A stretch of 64,000 nucleotides of DNA from the sequence record PP129558; one strand, given 5' to 3'. The notes below the pieces were generated by a model. That model ran no database searches. It had not been told where the DNA came from and was given only the letters and a program-made list of their open reading frames with translations. The translations under genes were made by a program, and so were the position numbers. The stretch is from Escherichia phage vB_EcoM_01. Numbering within the stretch: position 1 is the first letter of the stretch; each line of letters begins with the position of its first letter. Shown here piece after piece: positions 9,713 through 60,298 of this stretch.

Positions 9713-12385
9713 ATGTTTCCAATTCCAATATTTACTATTATGACCAGCACTGGTGTCGTTCCTCTGCCAGCAGGTATTGTTAAAAAAGTAATCACTTTAG
9801 ATTACCCAGATAATGCTGGCAATTCTAATAGCAGTTTAGCAATTTTGCTTAATGATGGTAGATTGTTTACTCAAGGCGCAAACCTTTTTGGTGAGATTGC
9901 AGATGGAACTCGTAGTGCACGATTCAATAATTTCCACTTAGCTTCTACTGTAGTAGCGGATGTGTTTACCGCAGATCGTTGTTTTGTTATTAAAACTAAC
10001 AGTGGAGGATGGCAATATTCAGGATTGACAGCAGGATTGGTAGGATCTATAGCAGCAGGTGGTACGGACGCATGTGTAACTACTTGGACCAGCTTTCCAT
10101 CTGTAATAACAGGGACTATCTCTTTAGCTAATCTTAAAGAGGTTAAGGGAGGATATAACAATACTCTCTGGTTAATGAATAGTGGTGTTCTTTATGGATC
10201 AGGTCAAAACACAGTAGGTAGTTTAGGTGCAAGTACTACTAACGAAGTTTCTACTCCTCGTCAGATAACAAGTGCAGCAGTTGCTTTTGATGCAGGTTAC
10301 AACCAATGTTCTTATGTCAACAATGTGGGAACCTTGCGTGTTTGTGGAGCCAGTAAAGGTTTAGCAGGTAATAATAACACAACAACAGCTTTTGTCAATG
10401 CCAAGATATCCGCTACTGAAACAGTGTATGTCAAAGATTACATCAATACAGTTTCCCAGACAATAGTTGTAGGAGATACCTCCGGTGGCACGGGTACAGT
10501 AAACTACTTATATGTTAGATCTAATACAGAAACAACCTACACTAAACTGGATACCTTTGCAGCAGGTTTCTCAACATGGAAGTTTCCACCAAGCCGCCAC
10601 TCTTTTTTCGTTGGGATCAATAATTCCTTGTGGGCTATTGGTAAGAACTACACTGCAAACTTAGGTTTGGGGTATGATTCTGCGAGCGGAGATCCACTCC
10701 AAGTGGGAAAACCAGTTAAACCTGAAGGAGTGGGTTCTTGGGATATAAACAAGCTCACAAGCGTTCATACGCTGAATATGGATGTTACTAACCAATTAGG
10801 TTATCAAGGAACCTTTTTCGTTTATAATGGAGATATGTATTATTCCGGTATTTGGAAAGATGGGAAAGCCTCGTATCTGTTCAATAGTGGTCTAAACTAT
10901 AATAAATTCACACCAATAGCAAGCTCCGTGATTACGGGCGATATTCTGGCAACTGGCTTAACTACAGATTCTTTAGGAATTTGTATTGTAGGTGGAACTA
11001 AACAGTTGACACATTCTGTTAGCCCAGAAGGAGGTAAACTTTTCAATATTAAATACACTTCTTCTGCCCCTGCAAACATGACAATATCATCTACTGGTTT
11101 AATGACTTTCCATGCAGAAGGTGGTTTTGATGCAGGTATGACAGCCTTAAACGCTGAAGGAACAACTTTATCAGATACCTCTGGAGGATATGCTTCAACA
11201 TTGAGCGTTTACACTCCTAGCTTATCTGCGATGGATGTAGGAACAACACAAACAATGGTAGCAGAAATAACGCCAACAGGAGCAGCAAGCTTACCTGGTA
11301 TGGTTGTTGAGTATACAACTACAGATCCTAATGTTGCTACAGTAGATCCTACAACTGGTGTAATAACTGGTGTTGGTGATGGTGGTTGTAGAATTGGTTG
11401 CACAGCTACGTATCAAGGTGTTGTTACCGCTTCTGATAGTTCTTATTTAACGGTGAATGCTGTTGCGGGAAAGGAGTTAGCTCCATCTCCGAGTAGTAGC
11501 TTAACGGTTCTAAACGGATATTTCAACCACTCGGCAGATGGGGCAATTACGTTCCCAATTTTATCGGGTACTGTCACACCAGCTAACTTTGTAGTTAAGG
11601 TGGATGACGTTGTAATACCTTCAAATAAAGTAATATTTAGAAATAAAGCTTTCTCTACAGTGGATAGCTATCCAGCAGGAGAATATAGACTGGCTATTGA
11701 ATTTGCAAGTGCTTCAGTAGTTAATAGTGTGGAAGTGTCTATGGAAGCAAACCCAAGTCTTTTAGAACTTTGGGGCGGTAATAGAATCAGTTATTCTACA
11801 AGCCCAGCCTCACAATTCTTAAAAGGTTGTGCTAACTTAAGACGAATAACTTCTGATTGTTTTAGTAACACATCTTACACCGGAACATCTATAAGTGGTA
11901 TCTTCTCTGGCTGTACAAGTTTGACAGCTATCCCTGAAGGTTTATTCAGTGATACTTTATTTCCTTCAATGACAACAATGTCAAGCACGTTTGAAGGTTG
12001 TACATCTTTAACATCTATTCCTTCAGATTTATTTAAGAATCTATCAAAAGTTACAAGATATTCTTACACCTTTAAAGATTGCACGTCTCTTGCAGAAGTT
12101 CCAGCAGGAATGTTTGATAATATTCCAACGAAAGTGACCTCTTTAACAGCTACATTCCAAGGTTGTTTAGCACTTACAGATTTTAATAAAATCTTTAATG
12201 ACAACCCAGGGTTAACTGTTTGTGGTAAACGTGGAGCATTATCTTCTTTCTTTAGTGGATGCACAAATCTTACAGGAACAGGAACAACATTAACAAATAC
12301 ATTAGGCGGAGTAGCTAATAGTTACCTATTCAGGTATTGCACAAAACTTTCTGATTATAACAACATTCCTTCCGGTTATAAATAA
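9713..12385 (+). CDS. large tail fibre/adhesin-like protein with C-terminal leucine-rich repeats
   Basis: 890 aa; repeated F(S/E/K/Q)GCTSLT.IP..LF units in the C-terminal third (BspA-type LRR-like); Ser/Thr/Gly-rich N-terminal two thirds. Confidence 0.7.
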   Translation: MFPIPIFTIMTSTGVVPLPAGIVKKVITLDYPDNAGNSNSSLAILLNDGRLFTQGANLFGEIADGTRSARFNNFHLASTVVADVFTADRCFVIKTNSGGWQYSGLTAGLVGSIAAGGTDACVTTWTSFPSVITGTISLANLKEVKGGYNNTLWLMNSGVLYGSGQNTVGSLGASTTNEVSTPRQITSAAVAFDAGYNQCSYVNNVGTLRVCGASKGLAGNNNTTTAFVNAKISATETVYVKDYINTVSQTIVVGDTSGGTGTVNYLYVRSNTETTYTKLDTFAAGFSTWKFPPSRHSFFVGINNSLWAIGKNYTANLGLGYDSASGDPLQVGKPVKPEGVGSWDINKLTSVHTLNMDVTNQLGYQGTFFVYNGDMYYSGIWKDGKASYLFNSGLNYNKFTPIASSVITGDILATGLTTDSLGICIVGGTKQLTHSVSPEGGKLFNIKYTSSAPANMTISSTGLMTFHAEGGFDAGMTALNAEGTTLSDTSGGYASTLSVYTPSLSAMDVGTTQTMVAEITPTGAASLPGMVVEYTTTDPNVATVDPTTGVITGVGDGGCRIGCTATYQGVVTASDSSYLTVNAVAGKELAPSPSSSLTVLNGYFNHSADGAITFPILSGTVTPANFVVKVDDVVIPSNKVIFRNKAFSTVDSYPAGEYRLAIEFASASVVNSVEVSMEANPSLLELWGGNRISYSTSPASQFLKGCANLRRITSDCFSNTSYTGTSISGIFSGCTSLTAIPEGLFSDTLFPSMTTMSSTFEGCTSLTSIPSDLFKNLSKVTRYSYTFKDCTSLAEVPAGMFDNIPTKVTSLTATFQGCLALTDFNKIFNDNPGLTVCGKRGALSSFFSGCTNLTGTGTTLTNTLGGVANSYLFRYCTKLSDYNNIPSGYK

Positions 12386-15006: not shown

Positions 15007-18000
15007 TCAATGACAGGATGCCCAGGAATTACCCACGTCATATCCGGCAGTAAGCTGAACGTTAAGATTGTAAAATTCTCCAGCCTTAGTAACAGCTAAA
15101 GCAGCAAGCTCACCTGCCCGACTATAAGCTGTAAACCATCCACCTTTAGGAGATTCATGAATGTTAGCCCAAATTTGCCCTGTCTCTTTTTCCTTATTAT
15201 GCTTCCATTCTTCAACTTTAGCAAGGCATTCTTTATCAATTTTCTTTTGTTCTTCAGGATCGTCTACTTTCTTCCAACCTAATGATTCAGGTGAAAACCA
15301 TTTAAATTCTACAAGGTTACGAGAAACTTCAAGCTGGGCTTCATCGTGATATGCAATCATTTGTTGCACGAAGTCTTTATTCTTCCAGTCATCTTTAAAG
15401 AAGTCAACACTTAGCCCTTCTTCTTCTATCATGTCGTCATAAATAACCATTGCACGTTTAGCGCAGATAACCCCACCACTTTGGAACAGAGAGTTAAGAA
15501 TCGCGTGAGCAGAACGAGTAGGAACCTTACGACCGTCAATACCCAAAACATACTGTTTACCAGTCTTAACCCAGAAATCGTTTAAACGTTCTTTAAGACG
15601 TGCCAGTGGGAATGCAGCTTCCCAGAAAGCATCAAACACCAATTGACCTGTAAACTTATCGCTACCAATTGTTTTAGCAACCTTGTCGGCTTGTGCACCA
15701 TAGGTAATACCATACTTAACAGATTTAGCAGGACTACGTTCAAATTTACGTCCAATAGTTTCAGTGATACGTTTTGCCATCATTGTGTGAACATCGTTAG
15801 GTTTCTCTAACAACAGAGCGTTACAATATTCATGTGGCTCCGGCTCGTACCGCCAACAGTAGTGTGATTCAATTTTTGCTTCCAAAGAGTCGAAGTCGTA
15901 GCCGATCTGGAAGTATTTAGGCNNGTCTCTTATACACATCTGACGCTGCCGACGACAGACGTGGTGTGTAGATCTCGGTGGTCGCCGTATCATTAAAAAN
16001 NNNNNNNNNNNNNNNNNNNNNNNNNNNNNNNNNNNNNNNNNNNNNNNNNNNNNNNNNNNNNNNNNNNNNNNNNNNNNNNNNNNNNNNNNNNNNNNNNNNN
16101 NNNNNNNNNNNNNNNNNNNNNNNNNNNNNNNNNNNNNNNNNNNNNNNNNNNNNNNNNNNNNNNNNNNNNNNNNNNNNNNNNNNNNNNNNNNNNNNNNNNN
16201 NNNNNNNNNNNNNNNNNNNNNNNNNNNNNNNNNNNNNNNNNNNNNNNNNNNNNNNNNNNNNNNNNNNNNNNNNNNNNNNNNNNNNNNNNNNNNNNNNNNN
16301 NNNNNNNNNNNNNNNNNNNNNNNNNNNNNNNNNNNNNNNNNNNNNNNNNNNNNNNNNNNNNNNNNNNNNNNNNNNNNNNNNNNNNNNNNNNNNNNNNNNN
16401 NNNNNNNNNNNNNNNNNNNNNNNNNNNNNNNNNNNNNNNNNNNNNNNNNNNNNNNNNNNNNNNNNNNNNNNNNNNNNNNNNNNNNNNNNNNNNNNNNNNN
16501 NNNNNNNNNNNATCATTGTGTGAACATCGTTAGGTTTCTCTAACAACAGAGCGTTACAATATTCATGTGGCTCCGGCTCGTACCGCCAACAGTAGTGTGA
16601 TTCAATTTTTGCTTCCAAAGAGTCGAAGTCGTAGCCGATCTGGAAGTATTTAGGAACCTCTACACCAAACAAGTTACGCATCTCCCATCCAAACAAAGAT
16701 GTGACACGAGGAATGTTAGCTACAGACCTATGCTTCATACGAGAGGTTGCAGCATCACATGTAGCTGCTGGGGTAGGAATACGACCATCCGCCCTTACTG
16801 CGGCTAAGAAACCTTTATCGTATTCTTGATCTTCTTCATCTTCTTCCCAATCAGCACCGCCACCTAAAATAGAGTTCCTACGATGCTTATACGTTAAGTA
16901 TTCTACAATCTGTGTAGCATAAGGGAATTTCTCACCCAAAGCTTGCAGGTTAGGACAGATTTCTTTTTCCTGACCTTTGGTAAAACATGGGTTAGTCAAT
17001 ACTTTAAGACCGCGACCTTTACCTTTTGCTATACGCTCTTGAATCTTCCTTTCCAAGGTTTCCGGTGTGCACTCCAGATGATCACAACGGTCCTGACAAA
17101 AATTAGAAGATAAAGTTTGCTCAACGTAAGCTCGAATACCTTTCTGAAGTTCTTCCTCGCTCTTTTTAATCTTGGTGCCAGATTTAAGAGTCAAGTCTTT
17201 ATCTTTATATTCAGACGGTACCCAACCTAATCCTACAAGCCAGTTTTTAATATGGGTTGTATCGTTCAATGTTGCAGGGATGTGAGGATCACATAAAGGC
17301 TCATCTGCTGCAACTGGCAGTTTCCACTCTTTCCCCAACATAACTAACCACCAATCTCCATCCCTCTCTTCCAAATGACCATCATGTTTCTTAGCAAAAT
17401 TGATCATATGGTTAGTTGGCTCTAAGTTCTTTTTAATTTGCAACTTAGGTGGAATAAAAGCCTTAAGATAGCCTTTTGTTGCTGGTTTAGGTGGCAAAAT
17501 AGGCTCAACGAGTAAACGAAGACGCTCCATTTCTGCATCCAAAAAAGCAAGGTTCTCTTCTGCTTGCTTCATGTTAAAAGCAAATCCACGGTGTTCCTGG
17601 CGTGTAATAATGTCTGCTACACGTTGTTCAAGTTCAAATGGACCTTCCCATTTATCATAATCACCCCACTCTTCCATAAGGTAATTATATACGCTTGTAT
17701 TAGCTTTGTTGTCATAGATACAGTAATAAAGCATATCCGCAGCAAAAGTCTTAAATCGATCTTCTTCTGGAATCTCTTTACGGAAATCTATTTTTACATC
17801 ACCACCTGCTTTTCGAGAAAGTGCTGCCAAGCTATGTCCTGATTTGCCCTCAATCTTTCGATCTGGGTTTAACACTTTACTCAAAATCAAGGAGTCAATA
17901 AGTTTTACCTTATTTTTGCCCCACGTATTATATTTAACACTGTAATCTAATCCATAAAACAGTTTTGTAGCCAACCAGTCGTAGTTGATACCGTTGTGAG

Positions 18001-18337: not shown

Positions 18338-19131
18338 TATTCCTCCTTTCTAATGTTCTCCAGAACCCACTGAAGTTCTTTTAAACTTAAACTTCTTACT
18401 CCCGCAGTTTTACTAGCTTCAGCTTTAAGTAACGGGTAAGCCTCAATGATACGCGTTTTAAGATCAGAAGTCAAGGCTTTTAAAAAATAGGTAGATGCTT
18501 CAGATAAAGAATCTTCTTCTGATAACACTTTACCTGCACTTGCTCCCGCTCTCCTAACGGCTATATCGTAGTCTTTACTGTTACCTAATACGAACAGTCG
18601 ATTCTCTCCTAAAACAACGGGAGAACGCTTCTCGTTGCGTTTAATCCATATCTGGAATACACAAGGAACATCCCAAGGTTCTCCATGAAGAATAAAAGAT
18701 CCTTTTGGACATTCTTCTTCGTAAAGAAGATGCATGTGGGGATTTAGTTTGTGTGCAAAAAAGATTTTTTGAAATGTGCGAGGCAAGATAAAACAAATAC
18801 CACCTTCGTTATCCAACATTTCAGCACAATGGTTAAAGAACTTAATGGCAAGACTGGCATTTTTTCCAAACGGAGGATTACCGACAAAAGCAGTTACACT
18901 GCCAACAGACTCAACAGATTGAGCTAAAAAATCTGCCTCAATACAATCTTCAAACTTAGGGTCAATATCAAAAGAAGTTATGTTTTTAAAACAAGAAGAG
19001 AAAGCTCCTTCTCCCGCAGATGGTTCTACGTAGTTAGCTTCCTCTCCAAAAATTTCTTTGATCTTATCACATAAGAACCCCGCATAAGCGGGGTTAGTGT
19101 AATATTGATCAAGTGTATTCAACTTGCTCAA
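18337..19131 (-). CDS. DNA N6-adenine methyltransferase (orphan)
   Basis: 264 aa; EPSAGEGAF (AdoMet motif I-like) and VGNPPFG ((D/N)PP(F/Y) catalytic motif). Confidence 0.65.
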   Translation of the reverse strand: MSKLNTLDQYYTNPAYAGFLCDKIKEIFGEEANYVEPSAGEGAFSSCFKNITSFDIDPKFEDCIEADFLAQSVESVGSVTAFVGNPPFGKNASLAIKFFNHCAEMLDNEGGICFILPRTFQKIFFAHKLNPHMHLLYEEECPKGSFILHGEPWDVPCVFQIWIKRNEKRSPVVLGENRLFVLGNSKDYDIAVRRAGASAGKVLSEEDSLSEASTYFLKALTSDLKTRIIEAYPLLKAEASKTAGVRSLSLKELQWVLENIRKEE

Positions 19132-29312: not shown

Positions 29313-29513
29313 TTACTCCTCCTCCTCCTCATTGAAGTCAATATCTGCAAGGAGTTCGAATTTACGGAAGTTACGACAACCTTCATAAATATAACAATCA
29401 CGACAAACTGCTAGAACACTTGGGGGATATATACCTCCCATCGGTGCGAATCGTTTTTCGTCATCATAACGGACACCAATGTCTTCATCAATTATATAGA
29501 TACGGATTCTCAT
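29313..29513 (-). CDS. small Cys-rich protein
   Basis: 66 aa; CRDCYIYEGC. Confidence 0.4.
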   Translation of the reverse strand: MRIRIYIIDEDIGVRYDDEKRFAPMGGIYPPSVLAVCRDCYIYEGCRNFRKFELLADIDFNEEEEE

Positions 29514-30622
29514 TTACCAAGCCCTCGTTTCACAGCAGCTACCATCCCGTCTTCCAGAGATTGAACTTCATTAATATAATCAACACGAGCAGCACGGGCT
29601 TCCGTATTGATGCGGTTAGTTTCTTCCAACATCTTAACCAAGTTTTCCTGATCGTGACGCAGAGTTTCAATATCCAACACTTGACGGTTAGCCAGTGCTG
29701 CTGCTTCGATCTGATTTTGTGTGGCAAGATCGCTACCCAGTTTAATTGCCAGGTTAAATTCATCAAGAACGTTATTCTGTGTCTCTGCGGCTTTCATTTG
29801 ACGTAAGCTCTCAATATACATTGAGAAGTTAGCAGAGTAAGCAGGAATAACATTATTCACTATGTTACGCGCAGATCGCATTAAGCTTGCAGAAACTTTT
29901 TGCATACCTTGCACACGTGGTCCCATTTGGACACACAGTAGGCGCAATGCTTTTAAATCCGCAATACGAATCTCCAGAAGATCCAAAGTATCTCGGATCG
30001 CTTGTCGCTGTTCTACCGCATCTTCTGGAAGAGCAGCCAAAGCTTGTTCTTCTTTTTCGTAGGTTGCTGTTAGAAGCTGCATATCTCGGTTCAAACTTGC
30101 AGCATATTGTCCAATAGCTTGATGTAGCTTTTCAAGATATACCAAGGAATCTTCTTCTTTGCGAATATCCATTTGAAGGTTCTTTACCAACTCTTCAATA
30201 CGGTTATTAACATTATCAAACTCCCCAAACAGGTCTTCTTTCATACCCATAACTTTTTTAATGAGTTTAGTAATACCTTTGCTTTGTTTAATAGAGTTTG
30301 GATCAAGTTGTTTTGCCTGTTTAATCAAAGCTGTGAGTCGTTCACTCATCTGATCGCCTTGATTACTACGTTGATGTTTTAATACCTCGGCATTCAAGGA
30401 ACGCAAGGTTGTTCCTGCCTCTGCCCCGATCTCTTCGATCTCTTGTCGTGTCATAGAAGGCAAAACTGGGACTTCTTGCGGTGCGGCTGGTGCATAAACA
30501 GGACTGGCATCTAACACGCTTGGAGCAAATACAGATTTACTTGCATCTGTTGTTGCAGTGAATACACTGATTTCAGACTTCTTCTGACCACCAGTAGCTG
30601 CTTTTAAAAACGGACTTGTCAT
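29510..30622 (-). CDS. telA: TelA/KlaA-like (toxic anion resistance family) protein
   Basis: 370 aa, largely helical/coiled, overall resemblance to TelA family; lies with TerD, vWA and TerC genes. Confidence 0.55.
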   Translation of the reverse strand: MTSPFLKAATGGQKKSEISVFTATTDASKSVFAPSVLDASPVYAPAAPQEVPVLPSMTRQEIEEIGAEAGTTLRSLNAEVLKHQRSNQGDQMSERLTALIKQAKQLDPNSIKQSKGITKLIKKVMGMKEDLFGEFDNVNNRIEELVKNLQMDIRKEEDSLVYLEKLHQAIGQYAASLNRDMQLLTATYEKEEQALAALPEDAVEQRQAIRDTLDLLEIRIADLKALRLLCVQMGPRVQGMQKVSASLMRSARNIVNNVIPAYSANFSMYIESLRQMKAAETQNNVLDEFNLAIKLGSDLATQNQIEAAALANRQVLDIETLRHDQENLVKMLEETNRINTEARAARVDYINEVQSLEDGMVAAVKRGLGK

Positions 30623-31209
30623 TCTTCATTCTCCTCTTCTGCATCTCTTATGTATGGTGAAACACCGTATTCTTTAGCTACTTTAATCCAATCGTCCCAT
30701 TTATACAACCATAATTTTCCTTCTGTTCCTTCTTTATCTGATTTTAACCACATATTAGGTTGCTTACCTGGATACATGCGATTAGGTTTACGATTATACC
30801 CTCTAACACATCTTGTCGCAAACCTATCCACCAAAACAAGAACATATTTATATTCATGGTTCAACGGCTCTTTGGAAGTAGCTTTAGGGTTTGCCCCTAA
30901 TTCTGCTGCCAGTTTTTGCCAATGAGCACCGTGCCGACTAAACTTACCCATACAACCATCAATAGCATGAGCAATTTCGTGCTTCATTGTATCCACGATC
31001 ATATCTCTTGTAGAGTTCTTATGCAAGTGCCAATTTACAACAACAATTTTATCTCGGTAGTTGCACCAACCGAAAGAGTTATTCACTTTGTTTCTAACGC
31101 AAGCTTTATATCCTGCTTCACGTAACATGTTGTAGTAAACAGGAAAATCTTCTTTTATTTCCTGCATCACTTCCCACCACAAGAGTTGCAAGTCTCTCTC
31201 GGTATACAT
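30619..31209 (-). CDS. SprT-like zinc metallopeptidase-fold protein
   Basis: 196 aa; HEIAHAIDG (HExxH) followed by Cys/His cluster. Confidence 0.45.
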   Translation of the reverse strand: MYTERDLQLLWWEVMQEIKEDFPVYYNMLREAGYKACVRNKVNNSFGWCNYRDKIVVVNWHLHKNSTRDMIVDTMKHEIAHAIDGCMGKFSRHGAHWQKLAAELGANPKATSKEPLNHEYKYVLVLVDRFATRCVRGYNRKPNRMYPGKQPNMWLKSDKEGTEGKLWLYKWDDWIKVAKEYGVSPYIRDAEEENEE

Positions 31210-32800: not shown

Positions 32801-32828
32801 CCTATAAAATAGCCTCCCGAAGGAGGCT
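32801..32828 (-). terminator. rho-independent terminator after terC
   Basis: gcctcc-ttcg-ggaggc hairpin followed by TATTTTAT on minus strand. Confidence 0.5.
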
Positions 32829-32834: not shown

Positions 32835-33809
32835 TTAAACAGTAGCTTCTTCTTTTTCAGGGAAGATAAAGCTTGCAATAACACCAAGAGCTAATGTGCC
32901 TAGAACAATCATCAGACTTACGTTAGGGGAAATATCATGCGGGAGGAATGACCACTTGGCATGAAGTGTTTCACCGAACGGGTGATACATAAGTTTAGCA
33001 CCAACAAACACCAGAACCACAGCAACAGCTTTCTCTAAGTGAACCAAATATTTCACAGCTACACTTAACACAAAGAAAAGTGCACGTAAACCAAGAACAG
33101 CCATCAGCATTGCAGAATAAACTAGCAGAGGTTCTTGTGTCACACCGATCACAGCCGGAACTGAATCAAAAGAGAAGACAATATCTGTAAGCTCAATAAC
33201 AAACACACAAAGAAGAGCAGGAGTTGCATATTTAATACCATTCTTAATGGTAATGAACTTTTCACCATCCAGTGCATTGTGCACAGGCAGAACTTTACCT
33301 ACTAAACGAACAGCCCAATGCTTAGAGTAATCAATATCCTCTTCTTCGTCACCACCTTTGATGATAGCCACGGCAGACCAAGCTACAATCAAACCGAACA
33401 ACACTTGGACCGACCAATGAAGGTTAAACAAAGCGGTCCCTGCTGCAACAAAAATACCTCGGAAGACAATGGCTCCTGCAATCCCCCAAAGTAAAATCTT
33501 ATGTTGGAGATGTGTGCTCTTAATTCCAAAGCTTGCAAAAATTGCCATGAACACCATCAGGTTATCTACAGAAAGACTCTTTTCCAACACATAGCCACTT
33601 AGGAAAAGCGCGGCAAACTCTTTACCATGTTCTACCCAAATGAATGCGTAATATCCTAAAGCTAAAGCAATCCAAAAAACAGACCAAAGCAAAGCAGATT
33701 TAATTCCAATTTCTTTATTCTCTTTATGACCAAAGAAATCGATACCAATAGACAATGCTAAAATACCAACTAAAACAACTACATCAATAATTGGGAAACC
33801 AAGTTGCAT
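32835..33809 (-). CDS. terC: TerC-family integral membrane protein
   Basis: 324 aa, multiple TM helices; hallmark SGYVLEKSLSVDNLMVF motif. Confidence 0.8.
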   Translation of the reverse strand: MQLGFPIIDVVVLVGILALSIGIDFFGHKENKEIGIKSALLWSVFWIALALGYYAFIWVEHGKEFAALFLSGYVLEKSLSVDNLMVFMAIFASFGIKSTHLQHKILLWGIAGAIVFRGIFVAAGTALFNLHWSVQVLFGLIVAWSAVAIIKGGDEEEDIDYSKHWAVRLVGKVLPVHNALDGEKFITIKNGIKYATPALLCVFVIELTDIVFSFDSVPAVIGVTQEPLLVYSAMLMAVLGLRALFFVLSVAVKYLVHLEKAVAVVLVFVGAKLMYHPFGETLHAKWSFLPHDISPNVSLMIVLGTLALGVIASFIFPEKEEATV

Positions 33810-33826
33810 TCTTTTCTCCTCTCTTT

Positions 33827-33885
33827 GCGGGGAACTATTCCCCGCTTCATGTGATATATCTTACTCTTTTTAAGAACTATGTCAA
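33827..33885 (-). promoter_or_regulatory. promoter plus 5' hairpin module upstream of terC (same architecture as the 55.7-59.9 kb array)
   Basis: minus strand: TTGACA-16 nt-TAAGAT-atatcacatga-GCGGGGAA tagt TTCCCCGC-RBS-ATG. Confidence 0.55.
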
Positions 33886-33888
33886 CAC

Positions 33889-34110
33889 TTATTTTGTTGA
33901 ATGAGAGGAAAAGATTCCTCGTAATACAGCCAGAATAAACGAAACACAAACCACGGTCCAGAAGGTTACTGGAACAGTGATATCTGCATGACCCATAACT
34001 TCAGCAACATAGTTGTAAGCCAGCAACAGTAACCAAGCTGGAATCAAACTAAGCATAAAAGCAATAACAAAAAAGCTTACCACTGCAACAATACCTGCAA
34101 AAACACCCAT
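33889..34110 (-). CDS. small membrane protein (two TM helices)
   Basis: 73 aa, two hydrophobic helices. Confidence 0.5.
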   Translation of the reverse strand: MGVFAGIVAVVSFFVIAFMLSLIPAWLLLLAYNYVAEVMGHADITVPVTFWTVVCVSFILAVLRGIFSSHSTK

Positions 34111-39208: not shown

Positions 39209-39308
39209 TATTAATCCTTATTTTGTGAGTAGAACTATTATTCTACCTCTTCCAACCGAAAAAAGCTTTGAGGAAAATCAAAAAAGGCGCAAAGTGCGCC
39301 TTTAAGTT

Positions 39309-48191: not shown

Positions 48192-48305
48192 TTGTTTTCT
48201 CCTTTTGTTTGGTAGGAGTTGATCTTAACAAGATTAAAAAGTATGTCAATACTTGATCTGAAATTATTTTCAGGTATCATGTATGAACATTAACAAGAGA
48301 GGTAG
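48192..48305. promoter_or_regulatory. strand-switch intergenic region with probable divergent promoters
   Basis: Divergent gene starts at 48191 (-) and 48306 (+); AT-rich, repeated TTGATCT, short dyad gatcttaacaagat. Confidence 0.4.
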
Positions 48306-51973: not shown

Positions 51974-53146
51974 ATGGCGAAGACGTTAGAACAGTATATA
52001 GGAGAATGTAAACCAATAGCGGAAGCTAAAGGATATGAGATTATAGGGATTGTAGAGCCATTTAAAGNAGGTGTGCACACGAAGATGATCAACTTCTGCC
52101 CTAATCNNNNNNNNNNNNNNNNNNNNNNNNNNNNNNNNNNNNNNNNNNNNNNNNNNNNNNNNNNNNNNNNNNNNNNNNNNNNNNNNNNNNNNNNNNNNNN
52201 NNNNNNNNNNNNNNNNNNNNNNNNNNNNNNNNNNNNNNNNNNNNNNNNNNNNNNNNNNNNNNNNNNNNNNNNNNNNNNNNNNNNNNNNNNNNNNNNNNNN
52301 NNNNNNNNNNNNNNNNNNNNNNNNNNNNNNNNNNNNNNNNNNNNNNNNNNNNNNNNNNNNNNNNNNNNNNNNNNNNNNNNNNNNNNNNNNNNNNNNNNNN
52401 NNNNNNNNNNNNNNNNNNNNNNNNNNNNNNNNNNNNNNNNNNNNNNNNNNNNNNNNNNNNNNNNNNNNNNNNNNNNNNNNNNNNNNNNNNNNNNNNNNNN
52501 NNCTGCCTGCTCTCACGATGAGTATGTGCAAGCTGGGGTGTGTGATGGTAAGTTTTATGTCGCAGGGAATGACCTTAAACAAGGGAAGATTCCTTGCCGT
52601 TGTGCAACTAACTGTCATTACACAGAAGCACAGATTACCTATAGGGTAAAAAAGGCAGTAGAAAGGAAAGGGTATATCTGGGTAGGTTGGATCGGGAAAC
52701 CGTCTGTAAGATTAGGTAAGTTTAAATATGGATGTAAGAAACATGGGGTACAAATAGGACGTGCCAGTGGTTTGTTAAATCATGGTACTGGTTGTCCGCA
52801 ATGTGCTAACCAGACACAACAACAATGTTACATTAACCACATCCATGATGAACAAGGTATTCTCTGTGCTTTGAAATTTGGAATTGCCAATAATAGTGAT
52901 CGCCGTATCAAAAAACAAAATAGTCATAATGTGTTTACTATGAAACAGGTCCAAGTGTGGCACTTCCCTACTGTGAAGCAATGCAAAGATGCAGAGAAGC
53001 GTTGTAAGCGTGTCCTTCACACGGAAGCAGTGAGCAAATATGCTATGCCAGATGGCTACACAGAGACAGTGGAGTTATCTTGCATGGCATCAATACAAAA
53101 CATTTATAAACTTTATGGTGGAACATTACAGGAGGAAACATGTTAG
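51974..53146 (+). CDS. Cys-rich protein (zinc-ribbon motifs), interrupted by gap
   Basis: C-terminal 214 aa after gap has CRCATNC and CPQC; N-terminal 44 aa before gap; internal sequence unknown (52107-52502 N). Confidence 0.4.
   Translation: MAKTLEQYIGECKPIAEAKGYEIIGIVEPFKXGVHTKMINFCPNXXXXXXXXXXXXXXXXXXXXXXXXXXXXXXXXXXXXXXXXXXXXXXXXXXXXXXXXXXXXXXXXXXXXXXXXXXXXXXXXXXXXXXXXXXXXXXXXXXXXXXXXXXXXXXXXXXXXXXXXXXXXXXXXXXXXXACSHDEYVQAGVCDGKFYVAGNDLKQGKIPCRCATNCHYTEAQITYRVKKAVERKGYIWVGWIGKPSVRLGKFKYGCKKHGVQIGRASGLLNHGTGCPQCANQTQQQCYINHIHDEQGILCALKFGIANNSDRRIKKQNSHNVFTMKQVQVWHFPTVKQCKDAEKRCKRVLHTEAVSKYAMPDGYTETVELSCMASIQNIYKLYGGTLQEETC
52107..52502. other. scaffold gap (N-run)
   Basis: 396 n. Confidence 0.95.
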
Positions 53147-55495: not shown

Positions 55496-55693
55496 ATGGC
55501 AACATTGCACATTGTGGCGAAAGCAGGACAAATCAGCGTCGTGGTAAACGGTTTTACTGAGTTCAGTCATCCCCAGGATGATCATGAAACGGTTTTATCT
55601 TTCATTGATTCCCTGTTAGAAATGGGAGTCATTACAGAAGACCAGCACGCTACAAAATGCAAGCGCGTTAATCAAATTGCAGGAATAGAATAA
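55496..55693 (+). CDS. hypothetical small protein
   Basis: 65 aa; GGAG RBS. Confidence 0.5.
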   Translation: MATLHIVAKAGQISVVVNGFTEFSHPQDDHETVLSFIDSLLEMGVITEDQHATKCKRVNQIAGIE

Positions 55694-55699
55694 AAAGTA

Positions 55700-55758
55700 T
55701 TGACAACAAACAACAACCTGATAAGATGTATCACATAGGGCGGGAAGTGGTTTCCCGC
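55700..55758 (+). promoter_or_regulatory. promoter plus 5' hairpin module
   Basis: TTGACA-16-TG-a-TAAGAT-gtatcacatag-GGCGGGAA gtggt TTCCCGC. Confidence 0.6.
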
Positions 55759-55783
55759 TCGTAACAGAAGAGAGATTATCATC

Positions 55784-56056
55784 ATGGCATCATATAGCGC
55801 AACAATGATCGTAGCTGGCACCACTGGTAAACCTATGTGCGGTGGCGGATCTTTCGCTAATATCAATATTGACGGGCGTTTATCCCTGGACGCAGCGATC
55901 ACCGTGGCGCGGGAAACATTTAAGAAAGAATGTAAATTCAATAAACAAGATTATCTCGGTTTCGCTATTGAAAAAACCGCGCGCTTTGTTGATTATAAAA
56001 GCCCGAAAATGGTTGATACTACACTAAAAGCGCAAGATGTAGCGTTTTTGCTTTAA
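55784..56056 (+). CDS. hypothetical small protein (array gene)
   Basis: 90 aa; AGAGAGATTATC RBS; preceded by module. Confidence 0.6.
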   Translation: MASYSATMIVAGTTGKPMCGGGSFANINIDGRLSLDAAITVARETFKKECKFNKQDYLGFAIEKTARFVDYKSPKMVDTTLKAQDVAFLL

Positions 56057-56059
56057 GGC

Positions 56060-56114
56060 TTGACATTAACGAATAATTTGTTTATATGTTACATAAAGCG
56101 GGAATAGTTCCCGC
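56060..56114 (+). promoter_or_regulatory. promoter plus 5' hairpin module
   Basis: TTGACA-17-TATATG...GCGGGAA tag TTCCCGC. Confidence 0.55.
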
Positions 56115-56132
56115 TATTTGTAAGGTGGTAGA

Positions 56133-56390
56133 ATGTTTTACATCAAATTAAAAGGTCACGTGATCGCGTTCAAAGATAACGCTTTTTACAGATTAGCAAA
56201 ATATGCGTTAATACATCCCCACTATGTTTATATAAGGGGGCGTGATGAAATAAATATCTTTGATCAAACAACATGCGAGAACATCGAGATCCGCAAGGTT
56301 GGCGTACGTGATTATCGTACATCTTTCTACCCTTGCAAGGATTCAGCAAGTCTTTTTAAAGTATGCCGATTGTTGAAAAAAGGTGGTTAA
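56133..56390 (+). CDS. hypothetical small protein (array gene)
   Basis: 85 aa; AAGGTGG RBS. Confidence 0.55.
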   Translation: MFYIKLKGHVIAFKDNAFYRLAKYALIHPHYVYIRGRDEINIFDQTTCENIEIRKVGVRDYRTSFYPCKDSASLFKVCRLLKKGG

Positions 56391-56949
56391 TATGGGCCGC
56401 GAATATGTGATCCAGTCTTGGGTAAAACATGAAGCAGATGATCCGCGCATCATTCCTGATTATCTTGTCGATGAATCCACGGGCTATAGCGGGGAGCAAA
56501 TAGGTAACAGATCAGCACGTAGTAACGGCAACGTAAAAGCGCGTTATGTGCGCCCTGGCTGGCTGGCAAATGGTAACGCTGATTTATCCAGTGCGGAAGA
56601 TGCGAGCGACGGCGCGAAAGATAATCCTTTGTACAAAATTGATCCGGCTTTTCGTGTCCTGGATGAATACCCCAGCAAGATAGCGGCGCTCGATCAAGCC
56701 CTGGAAAGTAAGCGCATCACCTGGACCGCTTACAACATGGCAAAAAACGTACTTGATGGTAAATTGATTCAAGCTGAAAGAAAATTAGCCAAAATTGCAG
56801 CCATAGCCCAGGAGGAAGACGAGGAGACAACGGAAGAGGAAGAGTACGAAGAGATCCCGCCGTTGTTGTGTGTTGATGCTTTTCCTGATTATCAGCCGAC
56901 AGAGGAAGAAAAAAGGATCGCGCTAGAAAACTTTGAAAATAGTCTTTGA
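56383..56949 (+). CDS. hypothetical protein with highly acidic C-terminal region
   Basis: 188 aa; EEDEETTEEEEYEE tract. Confidence 0.55.
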   Translation: MVNMGREYVIQSWVKHEADDPRIIPDYLVDESTGYSGEQIGNRSARSNGNVKARYVRPGWLANGNADLSSAEDASDGAKDNPLYKIDPAFRVLDEYPSKIAALDQALESKRITWTAYNMAKNVLDGKLIQAERKLAKIAAIAQEEDEETTEEEEYEEIPPLLCVDAFPDYQPTEEEKRIALENFENSL

Positions 56950-57003
56950 CATATCGCCGCCACTGGCATAATATTTACCACGTAGGGCGGCAATGGTGCC
57001 GCT
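56946..57003 (+). promoter_or_regulatory. promoter plus 5' hairpin module
   Basis: TTGACA (overlapping upstream stop)-17-TAATAT-ttaccacgtag-GGCGGCA atgg TGCCGCC. Confidence 0.55.
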
Positions 57004-57031
57004 CATAGTGAAATTATGCAAGAGGTTTACA

Positions 57032-57127
57032 ATGATTAATAAAGAAAATAGCTTGACGGTTGGAACGATTAACGCTATCATTTTCGCCGTTCCATTTTGG
57101 GTTGTAGTAGCGGCTATTATTTTCTAA
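57032..57127 (+). CDS. small hydrophobic peptide (31 aa)
   Basis: AAGAGG RBS 7 nt upstream; MINKENSLTVGTINAIIFAVPFWVVVAAIIF; not in track. Confidence 0.45.
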   Translation: MINKENSLTVGTINAIIFAVPFWVVVAAIIF

Positions 57128-57136
57128 AAAATATTC

Positions 57137-57196
57137 TTGACAACGTTTTTTAATCTGATAAGATGTATCACATAGGGCGGCGGAATACTTCCCCGC
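57137..57196 (+). promoter_or_regulatory. promoter plus 5' hairpin module
   Basis: TTGACA-16-TG-a-TAAGAT-gtatcacatag-GGCGGCGGAA tac TTCCCCGCC. Confidence 0.6.
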
Positions 57197-57218
57197 CAAA
57201 ACAAAAAAGGGTAACACA

Positions 57219-57581
57219 ATGAGCAAGCAAATCAATACTATCATGTTTAATCTGGTATCTTTCCGCGATGATATGAAAAATTTACCACGTGAAACGGTTG
57301 ATATTCATGTTTCAGCTTATCGCGCCCTTATTGATATGTTACCGCTAAAACGTGATCAACATGCCGCTAATATGATGCTTAATGCTATGCTTAAAAAGAT
57401 GATTCAAACGGATCTTACTCTGGCGTATGAGTATCAAGGGCGCTTATATGCGACTTACAACAAGGCGGTACCTGGTCTAGGAAGTACCGAAGAGTTGCAC
57501 GGCTTAAACCTGGATCAAAACACTTGGGATAGTATGCGCCGCGTTATGGTATGGGCCGAAAGCGGTAAAATTTACGAATAA
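57219..57581 (+). CDS. hypothetical protein (array gene)
   Basis: 120 aa; AAAAGGG RBS. Confidence 0.6.
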   Translation: MSKQINTIMFNLVSFRDDMKNLPRETVDIHVSAYRALIDMLPLKRDQHAANMMLNAMLKKMIQTDLTLAYEYQGRLYATYNKAVPGLGSTEELHGLNLDQNTWDSMRRVMVWAESGKIYE

Positions 57582-57587
57582 AAACGG

Positions 57588-57647
57588 TTGACACTGTTTA
57601 AAATTCTAGTATAGTTTACCACATAGGGCGGGAAGTGGTTTCCCGCC
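57588..57647 (+). promoter_or_regulatory. promoter plus 5' hairpin module
   Basis: TTGACA-16-TATAGT-ttaccacatag-GGCGGGAA gtggt TTCCCGCC. Confidence 0.6.
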
Positions 57648-57669
57648 AACAATGAAAAAGGTTAACATC

Positions 57670-58035
57670 ATGGCTANNANTNNNAANNNTNNTGNTTATG
57701 CTACCCTGGCTAACACTGCTAAAATTGAACTATCCAGCATTGAAGCGGTACATATTAGCGCCCGTCGCTGGTTTCAAAAGTCTTATGGTAATACTTATTT
57801 CTCTTTGATGGTTGACGTTGAGATCGGCGGTAAACTGATCGAAGTGGTTAACGTTCCGTTTCAATATGGCTATGGGGATCATTTTGATACCGTTGCCCTA
57901 GAAGAGTTTAGCAAGGTTATCAACCTGGAAGGTAAAGAATTTTCAAATTATGCCTACCTTTCCCGTTTTTGCCGTGATAATGGGATCGCTGTATACAGTC
58001 ATGCAAGCGATGTTAAACGTAAAAAAGATTTATAA
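57670..58035 (+). CDS. hypothetical protein (array gene); contains ambiguous bases
   Basis: Start placed at ATG 57670 with AAAAAGG RBS (track begins 57652 inside hairpin); n bases at 57677-57694. Confidence 0.5.
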   Translation: MAXXXXXXXYATLANTAKIELSSIEAVHISARRWFQKSYGNTYFSLMVDVEIGGKLIEVVNVPFQYGYGDHFDTVALEEFSKVINLEGKEFSNYAYLSRFCRDNGIAVYSHASDVKRKKDL

Positions 58036-58041
58036 AAAGCA

Positions 58042-58100
58042 TTGACAGCACGAATAAAAAGAGTAAACTGTATTACATAGAGAGCGGGAATAGTTCTCGC
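58042..58100 (+). promoter_or_regulatory. promoter plus 5' hairpin module
   Basis: TTGACA-16-TAAACT-gtattacatagag-GCGGGAA tag TTCTCGC (G-U wobble). Confidence 0.55.
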
Positions 58101-58124
58101 CTCACTGAAAAAGAGAGAAAAATC

Positions 58125-58364
58125 ATGGCTAAATCTAAAATGTACAACGGTCACAAAAACAAAACTCATTGGAATGTAAGCCTGTGGATTAATAACGATG
58201 AGGGATTGTATCGGTTTGCATTGGGATTGATCAATGAGTGCGGTAATAAAGATCAGGCGGCTGATTTAATGTGCTACCGTTTGAAACAGGATGGAATCAC
58301 TACAACGCCAGACGGCTTTAAGTATAGTAAAACTGCAATCCGCGCCGCTATGGTTGGAATGTAA
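58125..58364 (+). CDS. hypothetical small protein (array gene)
   Basis: 79 aa; AGAGAGAAAAATC RBS. Confidence 0.55.
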   Translation: MAKSKMYNGHKNKTHWNVSLWINNDEGLYRFALGLINECGNKDQAADLMCYRLKQDGITTTPDGFKYSKTAIRAAMVGM

Positions 58365-58373
58365 TAAAAACAG

Positions 58374-58432
58374 TTGACAACGTTTAAAATTAGTGTAAGA
58401 TGTATCACATAGGGCGGGAAGTGGTTTCCCGC
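58374..58432 (+). promoter_or_regulatory. promoter plus 5' hairpin module
   Basis: TTGACA-16-TAAGAT-gtatcacatag-GGCGGGAA gtggt TTCCCGCC. Confidence 0.6.
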
Positions 58433-58455
58433 CAACAACAGAGAGATTAAAGATT

Positions 58456-58683
58456 ATGGCTATCAATATTGTTCGTGTATCCGGCACCGTTGGCAGTTCC
58501 CAGGTTGTAGCAGTTGTAACAAACAAAAAGATTAATGATGTATGTGAGATCTTGAATAAGTGGGCTATTGCTAATTTTGGGGAATATGCAAGCGTTGAGT
58601 ACATCGAATCCTACCAGGTGCCGACCATCAGCCTAACCGATCTCAACGTTGATCGCCTGTTATGCCTGGATGAATTAATCTGA
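58456..58683 (+). CDS. hypothetical small protein (array gene)
   Basis: 75 aa; AGAGAGATTAAAG RBS. Confidence 0.55.
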   Translation: MAINIVRVSGTVGSSQVVAVVTNKKINDVCEILNKWAIANFGEYASVEYIESYQVPTISLTDLNVDRLLCLDELI

Positions 58684-58692
58684 AAAAGATTG

Positions 58693-58748
58693 TTGACACG
58701 GGAAAGAAAAAGAGTAAACTGTATTACGTAGGGCGGCAATAGTGCCGC
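58693..58748 (+). promoter_or_regulatory. promoter plus 5' hairpin module
   Basis: TTGACA-16-TAAACT-gtattacgtag-GGCGGCA atag TGCCGC. Confidence 0.55.
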
Positions 58749-58773
58749 TCACAACAGAAGAGAGATTATCACG

Positions 58774-58910
58774 ATGGCTAATATCCGTACACTGTTAAAA
58801 AATGCAAGTCAAGTTTTATTTTCAGATGACGAGTATTTCAACAAAGACATTACAGGCGTGAAAAATTTAAAANGNCNTNNANNANTNTAACGGCGACGAT
58901 GAAGAGTAAT
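58774..58910 (+). CDS. hypothetical small protein (array gene), ambiguous bases near 3' end
   Basis: AGAGAGATTATC RBS; ORF about 45 aa; n bases 58874-58890 make the end uncertain. Confidence 0.35.
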
Positions 58911-58975
58911 TAATAAGGCGGGGAATACTTCCCGCCACGCAGTGAATTTTCCGTTTGGGAAGTAAAAAATAAATC

Positions 58976-59037
58976 TTGACGATAATTTGTTATCTGATAG
59001 AATGTATTTCGTAGGGCGGGGCAATAAGGCAACGCCC
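58976..59037 (+). promoter_or_regulatory. promoter plus 5' hairpin module (variant)
   Basis: TTGACG-16-TG-a-TAGAAT-gtatttcgtag-GGCG...CGCCC. Confidence 0.5.
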
Positions 59038-59055
59038 ATTAATGAGGGTAGAATC

Positions 59056-59163
59056 ATGTTAGAGAAAATTTTCACGGTTGTAATAGTGGGCCTGGCGTTA
59101 TTGGTTGGAGTGGTTGCAACTATGGCTAACATGATCCTATCTTCCCACGGTATCGGCTAAAAG
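59056..59163 (+). CDS. small hydrophobic peptide (35 aa)
   Basis: GAGGGTAGAATC RBS; MLEKIFTVVIVGLALLVGVVATMANMILSSHGIG; not in track. Confidence 0.45.
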
Positions 59164-59248
59164 AGAGACACAACATGAAAACAGAAATCATTATTGAAAT
59201 CATCAACGGCTATAAAGAAGCCTTTATTTTTGCTGAATCACACATCTG

Positions 59249-59303
59249 NNNNNNNNNNNNNNNNNNNNNNNNNNNNNNNNNNNNNNNNNNNNNNNNNNNN
59301 NNN
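59249..59303. other. scaffold gap (N-run) with duplicated flanks
   Basis: 59094-59240 is repeated at 59304-59450. Confidence 0.9.
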
Positions 59304-59384
59304 GGCGTTATTGGTTGGAGTGGTTGCAACTATGGCTAACATGATCCTATCTTCCCACGGTATCGGCTAAAAGAGAGACACAAC

Positions 59385-59771
59385 ATGAAAACAGAAATCA
59401 TTATTGAAATCATCAACGGCTATAAAGAAGCCTTTATTTTTGCTGAATCAGCAAGGGATCATGAAGGTAATTTTATCGATAACTTAGACGATTATGATTT
59501 TTCTCCTAGCGCGGACGAACGGATCGCCCAGGATGTAACAGCCTTTATTAATGCTAATCTTGCCGCTATCTCTGAGGCAATGAGCGACGGCGCAACAGCC
59601 AACCAGATCGGGAATGATTTACATTTTACCCGTAACGGTCACGGCGTAGGATTTTGGGATCGCCCTGAAATATACACCACTAACACGGCGAACCGCCTAA
59701 CAAATGCAGCTAAGTTTATGCCGAACGTGTCGGCTTACATTGGTGAAGATAATTTGATTTATATTGAATAA
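59385..59771 (+). CDS. hypothetical protein (array gene)
   Basis: 128 aa; AAGAGAGACACAAC RBS; truncated duplicate of 5' end at 59175-59240. Confidence 0.55.
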   Translation: MKTEIIIEIINGYKEAFIFAESARDHEGNFIDNLDDYDFSPSADERIAQDVTAFINANLAAISEAMSDGATANQIGNDLHFTRNGHGVGFWDRPEIYTTNTANRLTNAAKFMPNVSAYIGEDNLIYIE

Positions 59772-59777
59772 AAAGTA

Positions 59778-59889
59778 TTGACACAGATCGCCAGTGTGCT
59801 AATATTTACCACGTAGGGCGGCAATGGNNNNNNNGANACNGATCGCCAGTGTGCTAATATTTACCACGTAGGGCGGCAATGGTGCCGCC
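59778..59889 (+). promoter_or_regulatory. promoter plus 5' hairpin module (duplicated by assembly artifact)
   Basis: TTGACA-16-TAATAT-ttaccacgtag-GGCGGCA atgg TGCCGCC; repeated after n block 59828-59840. Confidence 0.55.
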
Positions 59890-60207: not shown

Positions 60208-60212
60208 TCGAC

Positions 60213-60228: not shown

Positions 60229-60298
60229 CCCATTAAACGCAATAGGAAGAGGATAGACACATGAAAAAGATGATCGCAGTAGTTGCCCTGGTTGTTGG

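Follow-up and report, generated by a model that had tools for sequence, protein, structure and literature searches.

A promoter–hairpin module of the small-gene array type lies upstream of terC in the phAPEC8-like Escherichia phage vB_EcoM_01

Results

Organization of the terC locus

We analysed a stretch of 64,000 nucleotides of Escherichia phage vB_EcoM_01 (sequence record PP129558; hereafter the window), which is 96–97.5% identical to genomes of Phapecoctavirus, the phAPEC8-like E. coli myoviruses of ~150 kb that belong to the Stephanstirmvirinae. Along the phAPEC8 record, the window runs collinearly from 88.8 kb to the record end and on to 6.7 kb. The sequence has the character of a raw draft, with runs of N, exact duplications beside gaps and a poly-G tail that continues to the end, and it contains Nextera/P5 adapter read-through at 15925–15999 and 63768–63844.

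The gene at the centre of this study lies within a 35-kb block of genes that all point leftward and serve replication and nucleotide metabolism (NrdDG, helicase, DNA polymerase), and a TelA-like neighbour is found near it. A preliminary description of the locus had taken its 324-residue product for a Ter-like membrane protein, and the profile searches bear this out: the protein matches Pfam PF03741 (3e-40, 138 bits against a cut-off of 27.8) and NCBIfam TIGR03718 (TerC/Alx, 319 bits against a cut-off of 246), falls into the 'R_switched_Alx' subfamily and corresponds to PHROG 7180, which is filed under 'moron, AMG and host takeover'. The gene and the elements around it are as follows, all on the minus strand.

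33886–33899, minus strand: A-rich, UP-element-like stretch caacaaaataagtg upstream of the -35 box; the -35 boxes of the array described below are likewise preceded by 'aaTAAAAAnnn'
33891–33889, minus strand: TAA stop codon of an upstream open reading frame for a 73-residue membrane protein, inside the A-rich stretch
33880–33885, minus strand: -35 hexamer TTGACA, of which the first five bases (TTGAC) are invariant across all aligned modules
Between the -35 and -10 hexamers, minus strand: 16-nt spacer tagttcttaaaaagag
33858–33863, minus strand: -10 hexamer TAAGAT, with identical hexamer and spacing in the array modules at 55700, 57137 and 58374
33846–33857, minus strand: conserved 12-nt linker atatcacatgaa / aTATCACATgaa, part of the 39-nt promoter motif that the phAPEC8 record derives from MEME
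33827–33845, minus strand: stem-loop GCGGGGAA-TAG-TTCCCCGC with an 8-bp stem, followed by AAAGAGAGG, without a T-run
33807–33822, minus strand: Shine-Dalgarno (SD) sequence GGAG (33819–33816), unpaired in the predicted fold, and ATG start codon (33809–33807)
32835–33809, minus strand: terC/alx-family gene, 324 amino acids, with Pfam, NCBIfam and PHROG matches
32804–32828, minus strand: terminator-like hairpin AGCCTCC-TTCG-GGAGGCT (32828–32811) followed by ATTTTAT, 6 nt past the terC stop codon

Read along the minus strand from 33899 to 33807, the leader has the order caacaaaaTAAgtg-TTGACA-tagttcttaaaaagag-TAAGAT-atatcacatgaa-GCGGGGAA-tag-TTCCCCGC-aaagagaGGAGaaaaga-ATG. The preliminary description had read the motif as TTGACA-16-TAAGAT, an 11-nt linker and a hairpin with the loop 'tagt'; the promoter part of this reading is correct, whereas the linker is 12 nt long and the loop is the trinucleotide TAG. 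The two one-base slips cancel out, and a search pattern written with a 4-nt loop misses the terC site, whose actual loop has 3 nt. The promoter TTGACA-16-TAAGAT agrees with the sigma-70 consensus at 10 of the 12 hexamer positions and carries both A2 and T6 in its -10 box, from which we infer an active promoter of the host sigma-70 type with a predicted start site ~6–8 nt past the -10, inside the linker.

The gene is closed on its other side by the UUCG hairpin, which was flagged as terminator-like by the terminator scan, which combines a GC-rich hairpin with a U-tract, and which is kept with compensatory stem changes in 10/10 relatives, Klebsiella phage KP13-16 included. In the record of the related phage ASO2A (MZ726793), a terminator called by TransTermHP and WebGeSTer is placed directly after terC. 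Because promoter, leader hairpin, SD, gene and conserved terminator-like hairpin follow one another in one unit, terC looks like a self-contained unit. The terminator scan flagged no canonical terminator directly upstream of terC, so that read-through transcription into the gene, with other kinetics, likely contributes to terC RNA as well.

The leader was also compared with known regulatory elements. The whole window returned zero Rfam matches at the gathering score, while a permissive search (E up to 10) of 33700–33950 returned only noise, with neither a yybP-ykoY riboswitch nor any other known cis-element. Comparison of the leader hairpin by eye with lambda nut/boxB, rrn boxA and CsrA-type loops gave no convincing match.

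The terC leader is a member of the array module family

The preliminary description had likened the terC leader to a series of promoter–hairpin modules some 22 kb away. The distance to the first of these (55700) is 21.8 kb, and the two loci are on opposite strands. The array comprises the following elements.

55688–59888, plus strand: array of at least 10 paralogous promoter–hairpin modules, each before a small open reading frame
55688–55759, 56052–56114, 56933–57006, 57124–57198 and 57576–57648, plus strand: five array modules
58029–58103, 58362–58434, 58680–58752, 58964–59037 and 59765–59888, plus strand: five further array modules, the last one split by an assembly scar

The modules share the motif 'aaTAAAAAnnn-TTGACA-16-TAnnnT-gTAtcACATAG-GGCGG...CCGCC-~20 nt-ATG'. 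A profile was trained on nine copies from the array, without the terC copy, and both strands of the 64-kb window were scanned with it, filters off. The profile was sequence-only, since RNAalifold applied to the MAFFT alignment of the array yielded zero consensus pairs, the loop lengths being different. The terC site matched with 51.6 bits (E=4.8e-15) over 71 nt, corresponding to model positions 5–75 of 76, and outscored two training members of the profile, whereas the next non-array match in the window remained below 14 bits. The module that the preliminary description had placed on the minus strand upstream of terC is thus found where it had been described, by a profile made from the array alone.

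The likeness extends well beyond the two hexamers: the A-rich stretch, the spacer 'aaaaagagTAA', the linker TATCACAT and the sequence of the hairpin are alike as well, and every spacing agrees. At terC the spacer is 16 nt, the distance from the -10 to the stem 12 nt and that from the -10 to the ATG 48 nt; the corresponding values in the array are 16 (17), 10–14 and mostly 45–56 nt, and the terC leader also falls within the narrower family layout of a 16-nt spacer, a stem 10–12 nt past the -10 and an ATG ~45–56 nt past it. The notion that any strong sigma-70 promoter followed by a GC-rich hairpin would match in this way, with no relation to the array, has practically no chance of being right and is refuted by the scan scores: although the -35/-10 consensus is generic and further TTGACA-16-TAAGAT sites are present, generic promoter sites do not exceed 14 bits, while the terC site attains 51.6 bits over 71 nt. 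One such site, at 48249–48222 on the minus strand, scores 8.5 bits; these sites score low because the rest of the module is missing there. The terC leader is a true member of the array promoter–hairpin module family.

Distribution of the module

Within the window, the terC copy is the only full module outside the array. The same picture emerged from the motif scan of a whole genome, which the preliminary description had suggested: in the complete phAPEC8 sequence there are 17 array copies, all on the plus strand and spanning the record ends (143.7–147.6 kb and 0.2–4.5 kb), and the terC copy at 121.9 kb on the minus strand (56.1 bits) is the sole full copy elsewhere and the sole non-array match above 14 bits genome-wide. 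The array of phage ESCO13 contains ~20 module copies. A BLAST search with one module retrieved ~134 phage records, almost all of them belonging to the phAPEC8/phi92 group. We also observed bare hairpins of the module family, without a promoter, after some array genes (58913–58937 and 60210–60230).

As assembly scars fill the array in the PP129558 window, insertions and deletions were compared between ESCO13 and phAPEC8, and differences between the scar-ridden window array and phAPEC8 were dropped as evidence. In this small sample, a breakpoint of every indel or replacement event (4/4) falls inside a module or at most 25 nt from one, a placement for which we roughly estimate a chance probability of ~0.03.

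The terC hairpin is a conserved structure

The terC leader is predicted to fold with -14.6 kcal/mol (z=-4.35), and 0/200 shuffled sequences were equally stable. We collected orthologous terC leaders from phAPEC8, tuntematon, phiWec188, PHB05 (Justusliebigvirus), Klebsiella phage phi1_175008 and four IMG/VR contigs, the last encoding TerC proteins of 72–87% identity. All of them have the layout TTGAC(A/T)-16-TAnnnT, 8–12 nt, a GC-rich hairpin of 8–9 bp, SD and ATG; among the relatives examined, the module upstream of terC is absent only in Klebsiella phage KP13-16.

Close inspection of the orthologues reveals four types of stem (GCGGGGAA/TTCCCCGC, GCGGAGGA/TCCTCCGC, AGGGAGAG/CTCTCCCT and AGAGGGAG/CTCCCTCT). 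In an alignment of seven terC orthologues assessed against the named structure, 94.6% of the cells are paired, compared with 54–68% when the 3' partner is slid by 1–3 columns. Five of the eight stem pairs show double substitutions, and 0/500 shuffles of the seven leaders matched either the observed paired fraction or the covariation score. Given the fold z-score and the compensatory changes that keep the helix, the terC hairpin is a selected structure at this locus and is under purifying selection.

The arrays of PHB05 and phi1_175008 retain stems of the GGCGGG type (GGCGGGAA/GGCGGCA), whereas the terC stems of the same phages differ, which rules out concerted evolution of the terC hairpin with the array hairpins of its own lineage. 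Since array and terC stems diverge in this way in the Justusliebigvirus and Klebsiella phages, the sequence identity between terC and array is specific to Phapecoctavirus, and what terC keeps across the subfamily is the layout of the module rather than the sequence found in the array.

The apex of the loop reads T[AG]G in 41/48 distinct hairpins, and ATAG is kept in terC orthologues with entirely different stems. The loop is more strongly conserved than a generic stabiliser requires. A comparison of sense with antisense folding and of G·U asymmetry gave no significant separation between an RNA role and a DNA palindrome (34 vs 22, p=0.07).

A predicted 5'-proximal stem-loop in a proposed early-type cassette

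Cassettes that join a promoter to an early stem-loop (PeSL, for promoter-early stem-loop) are known from T4-type myoviruses (Arbiol et al. 2010, PMC2839356; Comeau et al. 2014, PMC4122927). We lean towards reading the terC leader as a PeSL-like early-gene cassette, composed of a predicted sigma-70 promoter, a 5'-proximal stem-loop acting as stabiliser or insulator, an SD and terC itself. Host RNA polymerase would start ~6–8 nt past TAAGAT, and the stem-loop would fold within the first ~5–25 nt of the terC mRNA, where it may protect the mRNA from RppH- and RNase E-mediated decay that depends on the 5' end, while leaving the strong GGAG SD free. With a start site at this distance, 4–6 unpaired 5' nucleotides are predicted to precede the terC stem. 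In work from the Belasco laboratory, this number is reportedly at the upper limit for 5'-end protection. The stem-loop could double as a 3' barrier for RNA coming from upstream; a function at 3' ends as well is suggested by the bare promoterless hairpins that follow some array genes (58913–58937 and 60210–60230). The module as a whole would give terC autonomous, host-polymerase-driven expression, presumably immediately post-infection, and would take the place of the metal-sensing riboswitch leader that Alx-subfamily genes of bacteria typically carry.

The constant geometry of the module is in keeping with a 5'-proximal position: across 39 distinct modules, which come from five phages and two IMG/VR contigs, the gap between the -10 and the stem is 6–15 nt, with a mode of 10–11. 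The E. coli ompA and papA mRNAs are stabilised by 5'-terminal stem-loops (Emory 1992; Bouvet & Belasco 1992; Bricker & Belasco 1999, all listed in the review PMC3997798), and by analogy we infer that the module stem-loop acts as an mRNA stabiliser.

The preliminary description had gone on to place terC in the same temporal class as the small early-type genes of the array. A shared early timing is plausible, although the place of terC within the 35-kb leftward block, with its likely read-through, weakens the case; the label 'early' is given to terC solely because of its sigma-70 consensus. Our literature search for transcriptome, start-site or promoter studies of Phapecoctavirus and the Stephanstirmvirinae found none.

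Alternative roles of the hairpin

The stem-loop might instead be a terminator or attenuator, a role proposed for T4-type PeSLs, that stops or damps read-through from upstream, so that each cassette, terC included, would be driven mainly by its own promoter. Such a role has a precedent in the PeSL stem-loop of RB49/phi1, the sole one tested, which cut the expression of a downstream lacZ about as much as rrnB T1 (PMC2839356); in addition, the MZ726793 record marks the hairpins, that of terC included, as WebGeSTer rho-independent terminators, and hairpins of the same family stand alone after stop codons in the array. The sequence past the stem nevertheless argues against it. The module hairpin departs from a canonical intrinsic terminator in having AAAGAGAG after the stem instead of a U-tract, 35/39 distinct modules have at most two T within the 8 nt past the stem, and the terminator scan flagged no module hairpin on the sense strand. 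Because the U-tract is missing, the stem-loop more likely stabilises or insulates than terminates. The geometry differs too, as the stem-loop of T4-type PeSLs mostly overlaps or precedes the -10, whereas here the hairpin always lies downstream of the predicted start of its own promoter. The promoter's own transcript would then be aborted as well, and an efficient terminator past each start site would presumably silence the own genes of ~20 tandem promoters. We regard a terminator as possible, though rather unlikely.

A second alternative holds that a phage or host factor binds sequence-specifically to the hairpin, or to the corresponding DNA palindrome at +5 to +25, and regulates the array and terC jointly, for instance in the shut-off of early expression, in antitermination or in translational control. 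A palindrome just past the start site occupies the classic position of an operator. In favour of such a site, the loop is nearly constant while the stems vary (T[AG]G apex in 41/48, ATAG in the stem-swapped terC orthologues), and the 5' arm GGCGG is kept in the arrays of three genus-level lineages; that the T[AG]G loop is kept even where the terC stem has been replaced hints at sequence-specific recognition. However, the array copies are paralogous, so that their loop conservation may stem from shared descent or gene conversion, and terC itself contributes only ~4 independent lineages, one of them with TTG. A rigid dimeric DNA-binding protein fits poorly, as the stems differ in length and the half-sites in spacing (GGCGG-N7 to N11-CCGCC), and within Klebsiella phage phi1_175008 the terC and array stems are unrelated (AGAGGGGG vs GCGGGAA). 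There is also no Rfam match, and no candidate binding protein was identified. Taken together, a dedicated binding site appears doubtful.

About as doubtful is a bolder version, in which the constant A-U-R-G apex would be the recognition site of an RNA-binding factor, ~20 small early genes and terC would form a post-transcriptional regulon and the modules would be mobile cassettes of the PeSL type. Were it true, a metal-homeostasis gene would be joined to ~20 small early genes in one regulon, and a subfamily of phages that is not related to T4 would have evolved or acquired a PeSL-type system of mobile regulatory cassettes.

Finally, the module at terC could be mainly a footprint of PeSL-type recombinational shuffling, in which homologous recombination between the repeated modules captured terC or still exchanges it, with a hairpin that has no function of its own at this locus. 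Several observations recall such shuffling: the breakpoints of the ESCO13/phAPEC8 array events lie at modules (4/4, rough chance probability 0.03), the homology between Phapecoctavirus and Justusliebigvirus around terC begins within the promoter, with a different upstream gene, and the PHROGs category of terC is 'moron, AMG and host takeover'. Against it, the terC hairpin has evolved by compensatory changes, and its position, promoter and SD are kept across lineages, which points to purifying selection. The cassette is moreover syntenic in all relatives examined and therefore gives no sign of recent movement. A functionless footprint is thus very improbable; a recombinational origin and a role in expression are in any case not mutually exclusive.

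Discussion

Implications for annotation and phage biology

For annotators, the locus would represent an Alx-type TerC gene that is an autonomous unit driven by the host polymerase and that lacks the metal-sensing leader of its bacterial counterparts. As such a unit, terC would probably be made from the first minutes of infection, a prediction of use in asking what role a metal-homeostasis membrane protein plays in a lytic coliphage used in therapy cocktails. The comparison also brings to light that one and the same hairpin bears inconsistent labels in public records, namely 'promoter' (PHIRE) and 'terminator' (WebGeSTer). More broadly, PeSL-like cassettes, which have so far been described in T4-type phages, seem to shape the plastic early region of phages like phAPEC8 and phi92 as well. 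The practical value of these results is modest and current understanding is not overturned. The feature is of a known kind, and its identification is statistically solid.

Comparison with existing annotation and known systems

Public records of phAPEC8-like phages already contain the promoter link between terC and the array. In the phAPEC8 record (JX561091, 2012), a 'putative host dependent promoter determined with MEME' is placed at 121933–121971 on the minus strand, directly before 'integral membrane protein TerC', and the same MEME label is given to four promoters of the array; the annotated 39-mers correspond to nnTTGACA-16-TAnnnT-gTAtcACAT. The array hairpins of that record are marked as a 20-nt 'putative promoter determined with PHIRE' (for example gtaGGGCGGCAATGGTGCCG), these 20-mers being the 5' arm plus loop of the hairpins. 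In the ASO2A record (MZ726793), array and terC alike carry a sigma-70 promoter followed by the hairpin, annotated as a WebGeSTer 'rho-independent terminator'. Both records thus cover the orthologous element but give no interpretation of it, and our literature search found no paper on the link between terC and the array, or on these elements in the Stephanstirmvirinae.

Among known leaders, the yybP-ykoY Mn2+ riboswitch of bacterial alx/terC genes is the one that the protein itself would suggest, since the phage TerC coding sequence belongs to the same 'R_switched_Alx' subfamily; unlike the bacterial alx leaders, however, the 78-nt leader region of the phage gene contains no Rfam family. The 5' stabilisers of ompA and papA share with the terC leader a stable hairpin near the 5' end, upstream of an exposed SD. 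The terC leader differs from them in that its start site is predicted, in its ~4–6 unpaired 5' nucleotides and in a conserved loop that the stabilisers do not need.

With its own promoter and a terminator-like hairpin flanking an auxiliary gene of host-derived type, terC also recalls the morons, promoter–gene–terminator units in the Hendrix/Juhala concept (summarised in PMC2839356). A moron is, however, inserted against the direction of transcription of a prophage, whereas terC points the same way as its neighbours, in a lytic phage, and takes its promoter from the phage's own repeated module family.

The most extensive correspondence is with the PeSLs. In the terC module as in these, an AT-rich stretch with the stop codon of the preceding frame is joined to a promoter of sigma-70 consensus, a stem-loop rich in G/C, an SD and an ATG; PeSL promoters have been shown to be very strong (PMC2839356). 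The array shares with PeSLs the presence of many copies between small ORFans in a plastic region, the breakage of close-relative indels at the repeats and the clustering itself (at least 10 copies in the window, 17 in phAPEC8 and ~20 in ESCO13, with the terC copy outside). The differences concern hosts, geometry and evidence. PeSLs occur in T4-type, Tevenvirinae-like phages, whereas the present module is carried by Phapecoctavirus of the Stephanstirmvirinae (the phAPEC8/phi92 group); its stem-loop is fixed 6–15 nt downstream of the -10, where that of PeSLs lies mostly between or over the -35 and -10 boxes; and it lacks a U-tract and is known from sequence, whereas terminator activity, mini-circles and promoters have been assayed for PeSLs. 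Unlike PeSLs, moreover, one copy has its place outside the plastic region, before the conserved auxiliary gene terC. The module is thus PeSL-like in look and probably in its working, rather than a demonstrated member of that class.

Transcription unit and neighbourhood of terC

The TerC/Alx-family membrane-protein gene terC (32835-33809, minus strand) is followed, 6 nt past its stop codon, by a hairpin (32804-32828, minus strand) that has a UUCG tetraloop and a short T-run and was kept with compensatory stem changes in all 10 relatives examined, including one without the upstream module. With this terminator-like hairpin at its 3' end, terC looks like a self-contained transcription unit. In Klebsiella phage KP13-16 (Stephanstirmvirinae; locus L012, 2460-2490), terC/alx has an annotated GTG start and a 28-nt intergenic region from which the promoter-hairpin module is absent, while the terminator-like hairpin on the 3' side is retained; this phage is a natural comparator lacking the module. 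Two further genes lie on the terC strand, 2-4 kb downstream:

29510-30622, minus strand: protein of the TelA family ('toxic anion resistance'; PF05816, 1e-33)
30619-31209, minus strand: SprT-like metallopeptidase-domain protein

The TelA-family gene thus places two ter/tel-type genes in close proximity in this phage.

A conserved apex in the module hairpins

The hairpins of the array of small genes and of terC have variable stems and, in 41 of 48 distinct copies, T[AG]G at the apex (loop variants ATGG, TAG, TGG and ATAGG), with an ATAG loop preserved even in terC orthologues whose stems are unrelated. Examples of the apex, found also in the relatives' loci L006, L008, L014, L016 and L017, are:

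33835-33837, module of terC
55746-55750, module of the array
58420-58424, module of the array

This near-invariant apex matched no nameable loop class, and may constitute a recognition motif.

Hairpins, promoters and palindromes outside complete modules

Hairpins of the module family also stand alone past stop codons, with no promoter, at 58913-58937 (GGCGGGGAAtacTTCCCGCC) and 60210-60230 (GGGGCGgcaaCGCCCC), both on the plus strand, and could be module remnants or 3'-end elements. A promoter-like site at 48222-48249 (minus strand) matches TTGACA-16-TAAGAT perfectly and has TG ahead of the -10, but carries no hairpin. It precedes an ATG (48190) by about 40 nt and sits at the divergent junction heading a long leftward block of replication and nucleotide-metabolism genes. 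This site shows that the hairpin is not a universal partner of this promoter type. Two palindromes are strongly terminator-like in both directions, each strand carrying a T-run, and likely mark real transcription-unit boundaries:

39283-39303: AAAGGCGCAaagTGCGCCTTT
60972-60997: AAACAGGAC...GTCCTGTTT

Draft state of the record

As a raw draft, the window contains numerous N runs and shows the following features:

15923-16511 and 63717-64000: sequencing artefacts
1-35, 52107-52502, 59249-59303, 60299-60429 and 61337-62283: further artefact-affected stretches
15779-15921 = 16512-16654, 59094-59240 = 59304-59450 and 60149-60298 = 60430-60579: exact duplicates flanking gaps

Read-through into Nextera mosaic-end and P5 adapter sequence (CTGTCTCTTATACACATCTGACGCTGCCGACGA...GTGTAGATCTCGGTGGTCGCCGTATCATT), with poly-A behind it, is present in two copies, the second leading into a poly-G tail of about 160 nt that reaches the window end. 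The adapter, homopolymer tails, N runs and gap-flanking duplicates are neither phage sequence nor genuine repeats. Separately, several records 96-99% identical to this E. coli phage are filed under unlikely hosts (Campylobacter phages B15 and A150, Acinetobacter phage vB_AbaM_ABPW7, Pseudomonas phage PsgM04F), and are probably mislabelled or contaminant isolates.

Array differences between relatives

All four gene-content differences between the complete arrays of ESCO13 (L017) and phAPEC8 (L008/L006) have a breakpoint within a promoter-hairpin module or at most 25 nt from one. In ESCO13 they lie at:

10740-12282
15387
16139-16348
18464-18758

The module-associated breakpoints are consistent with cassette shuffling like that of the promoter-early stem-loop (PeSL) cassettes of T4-type phages.
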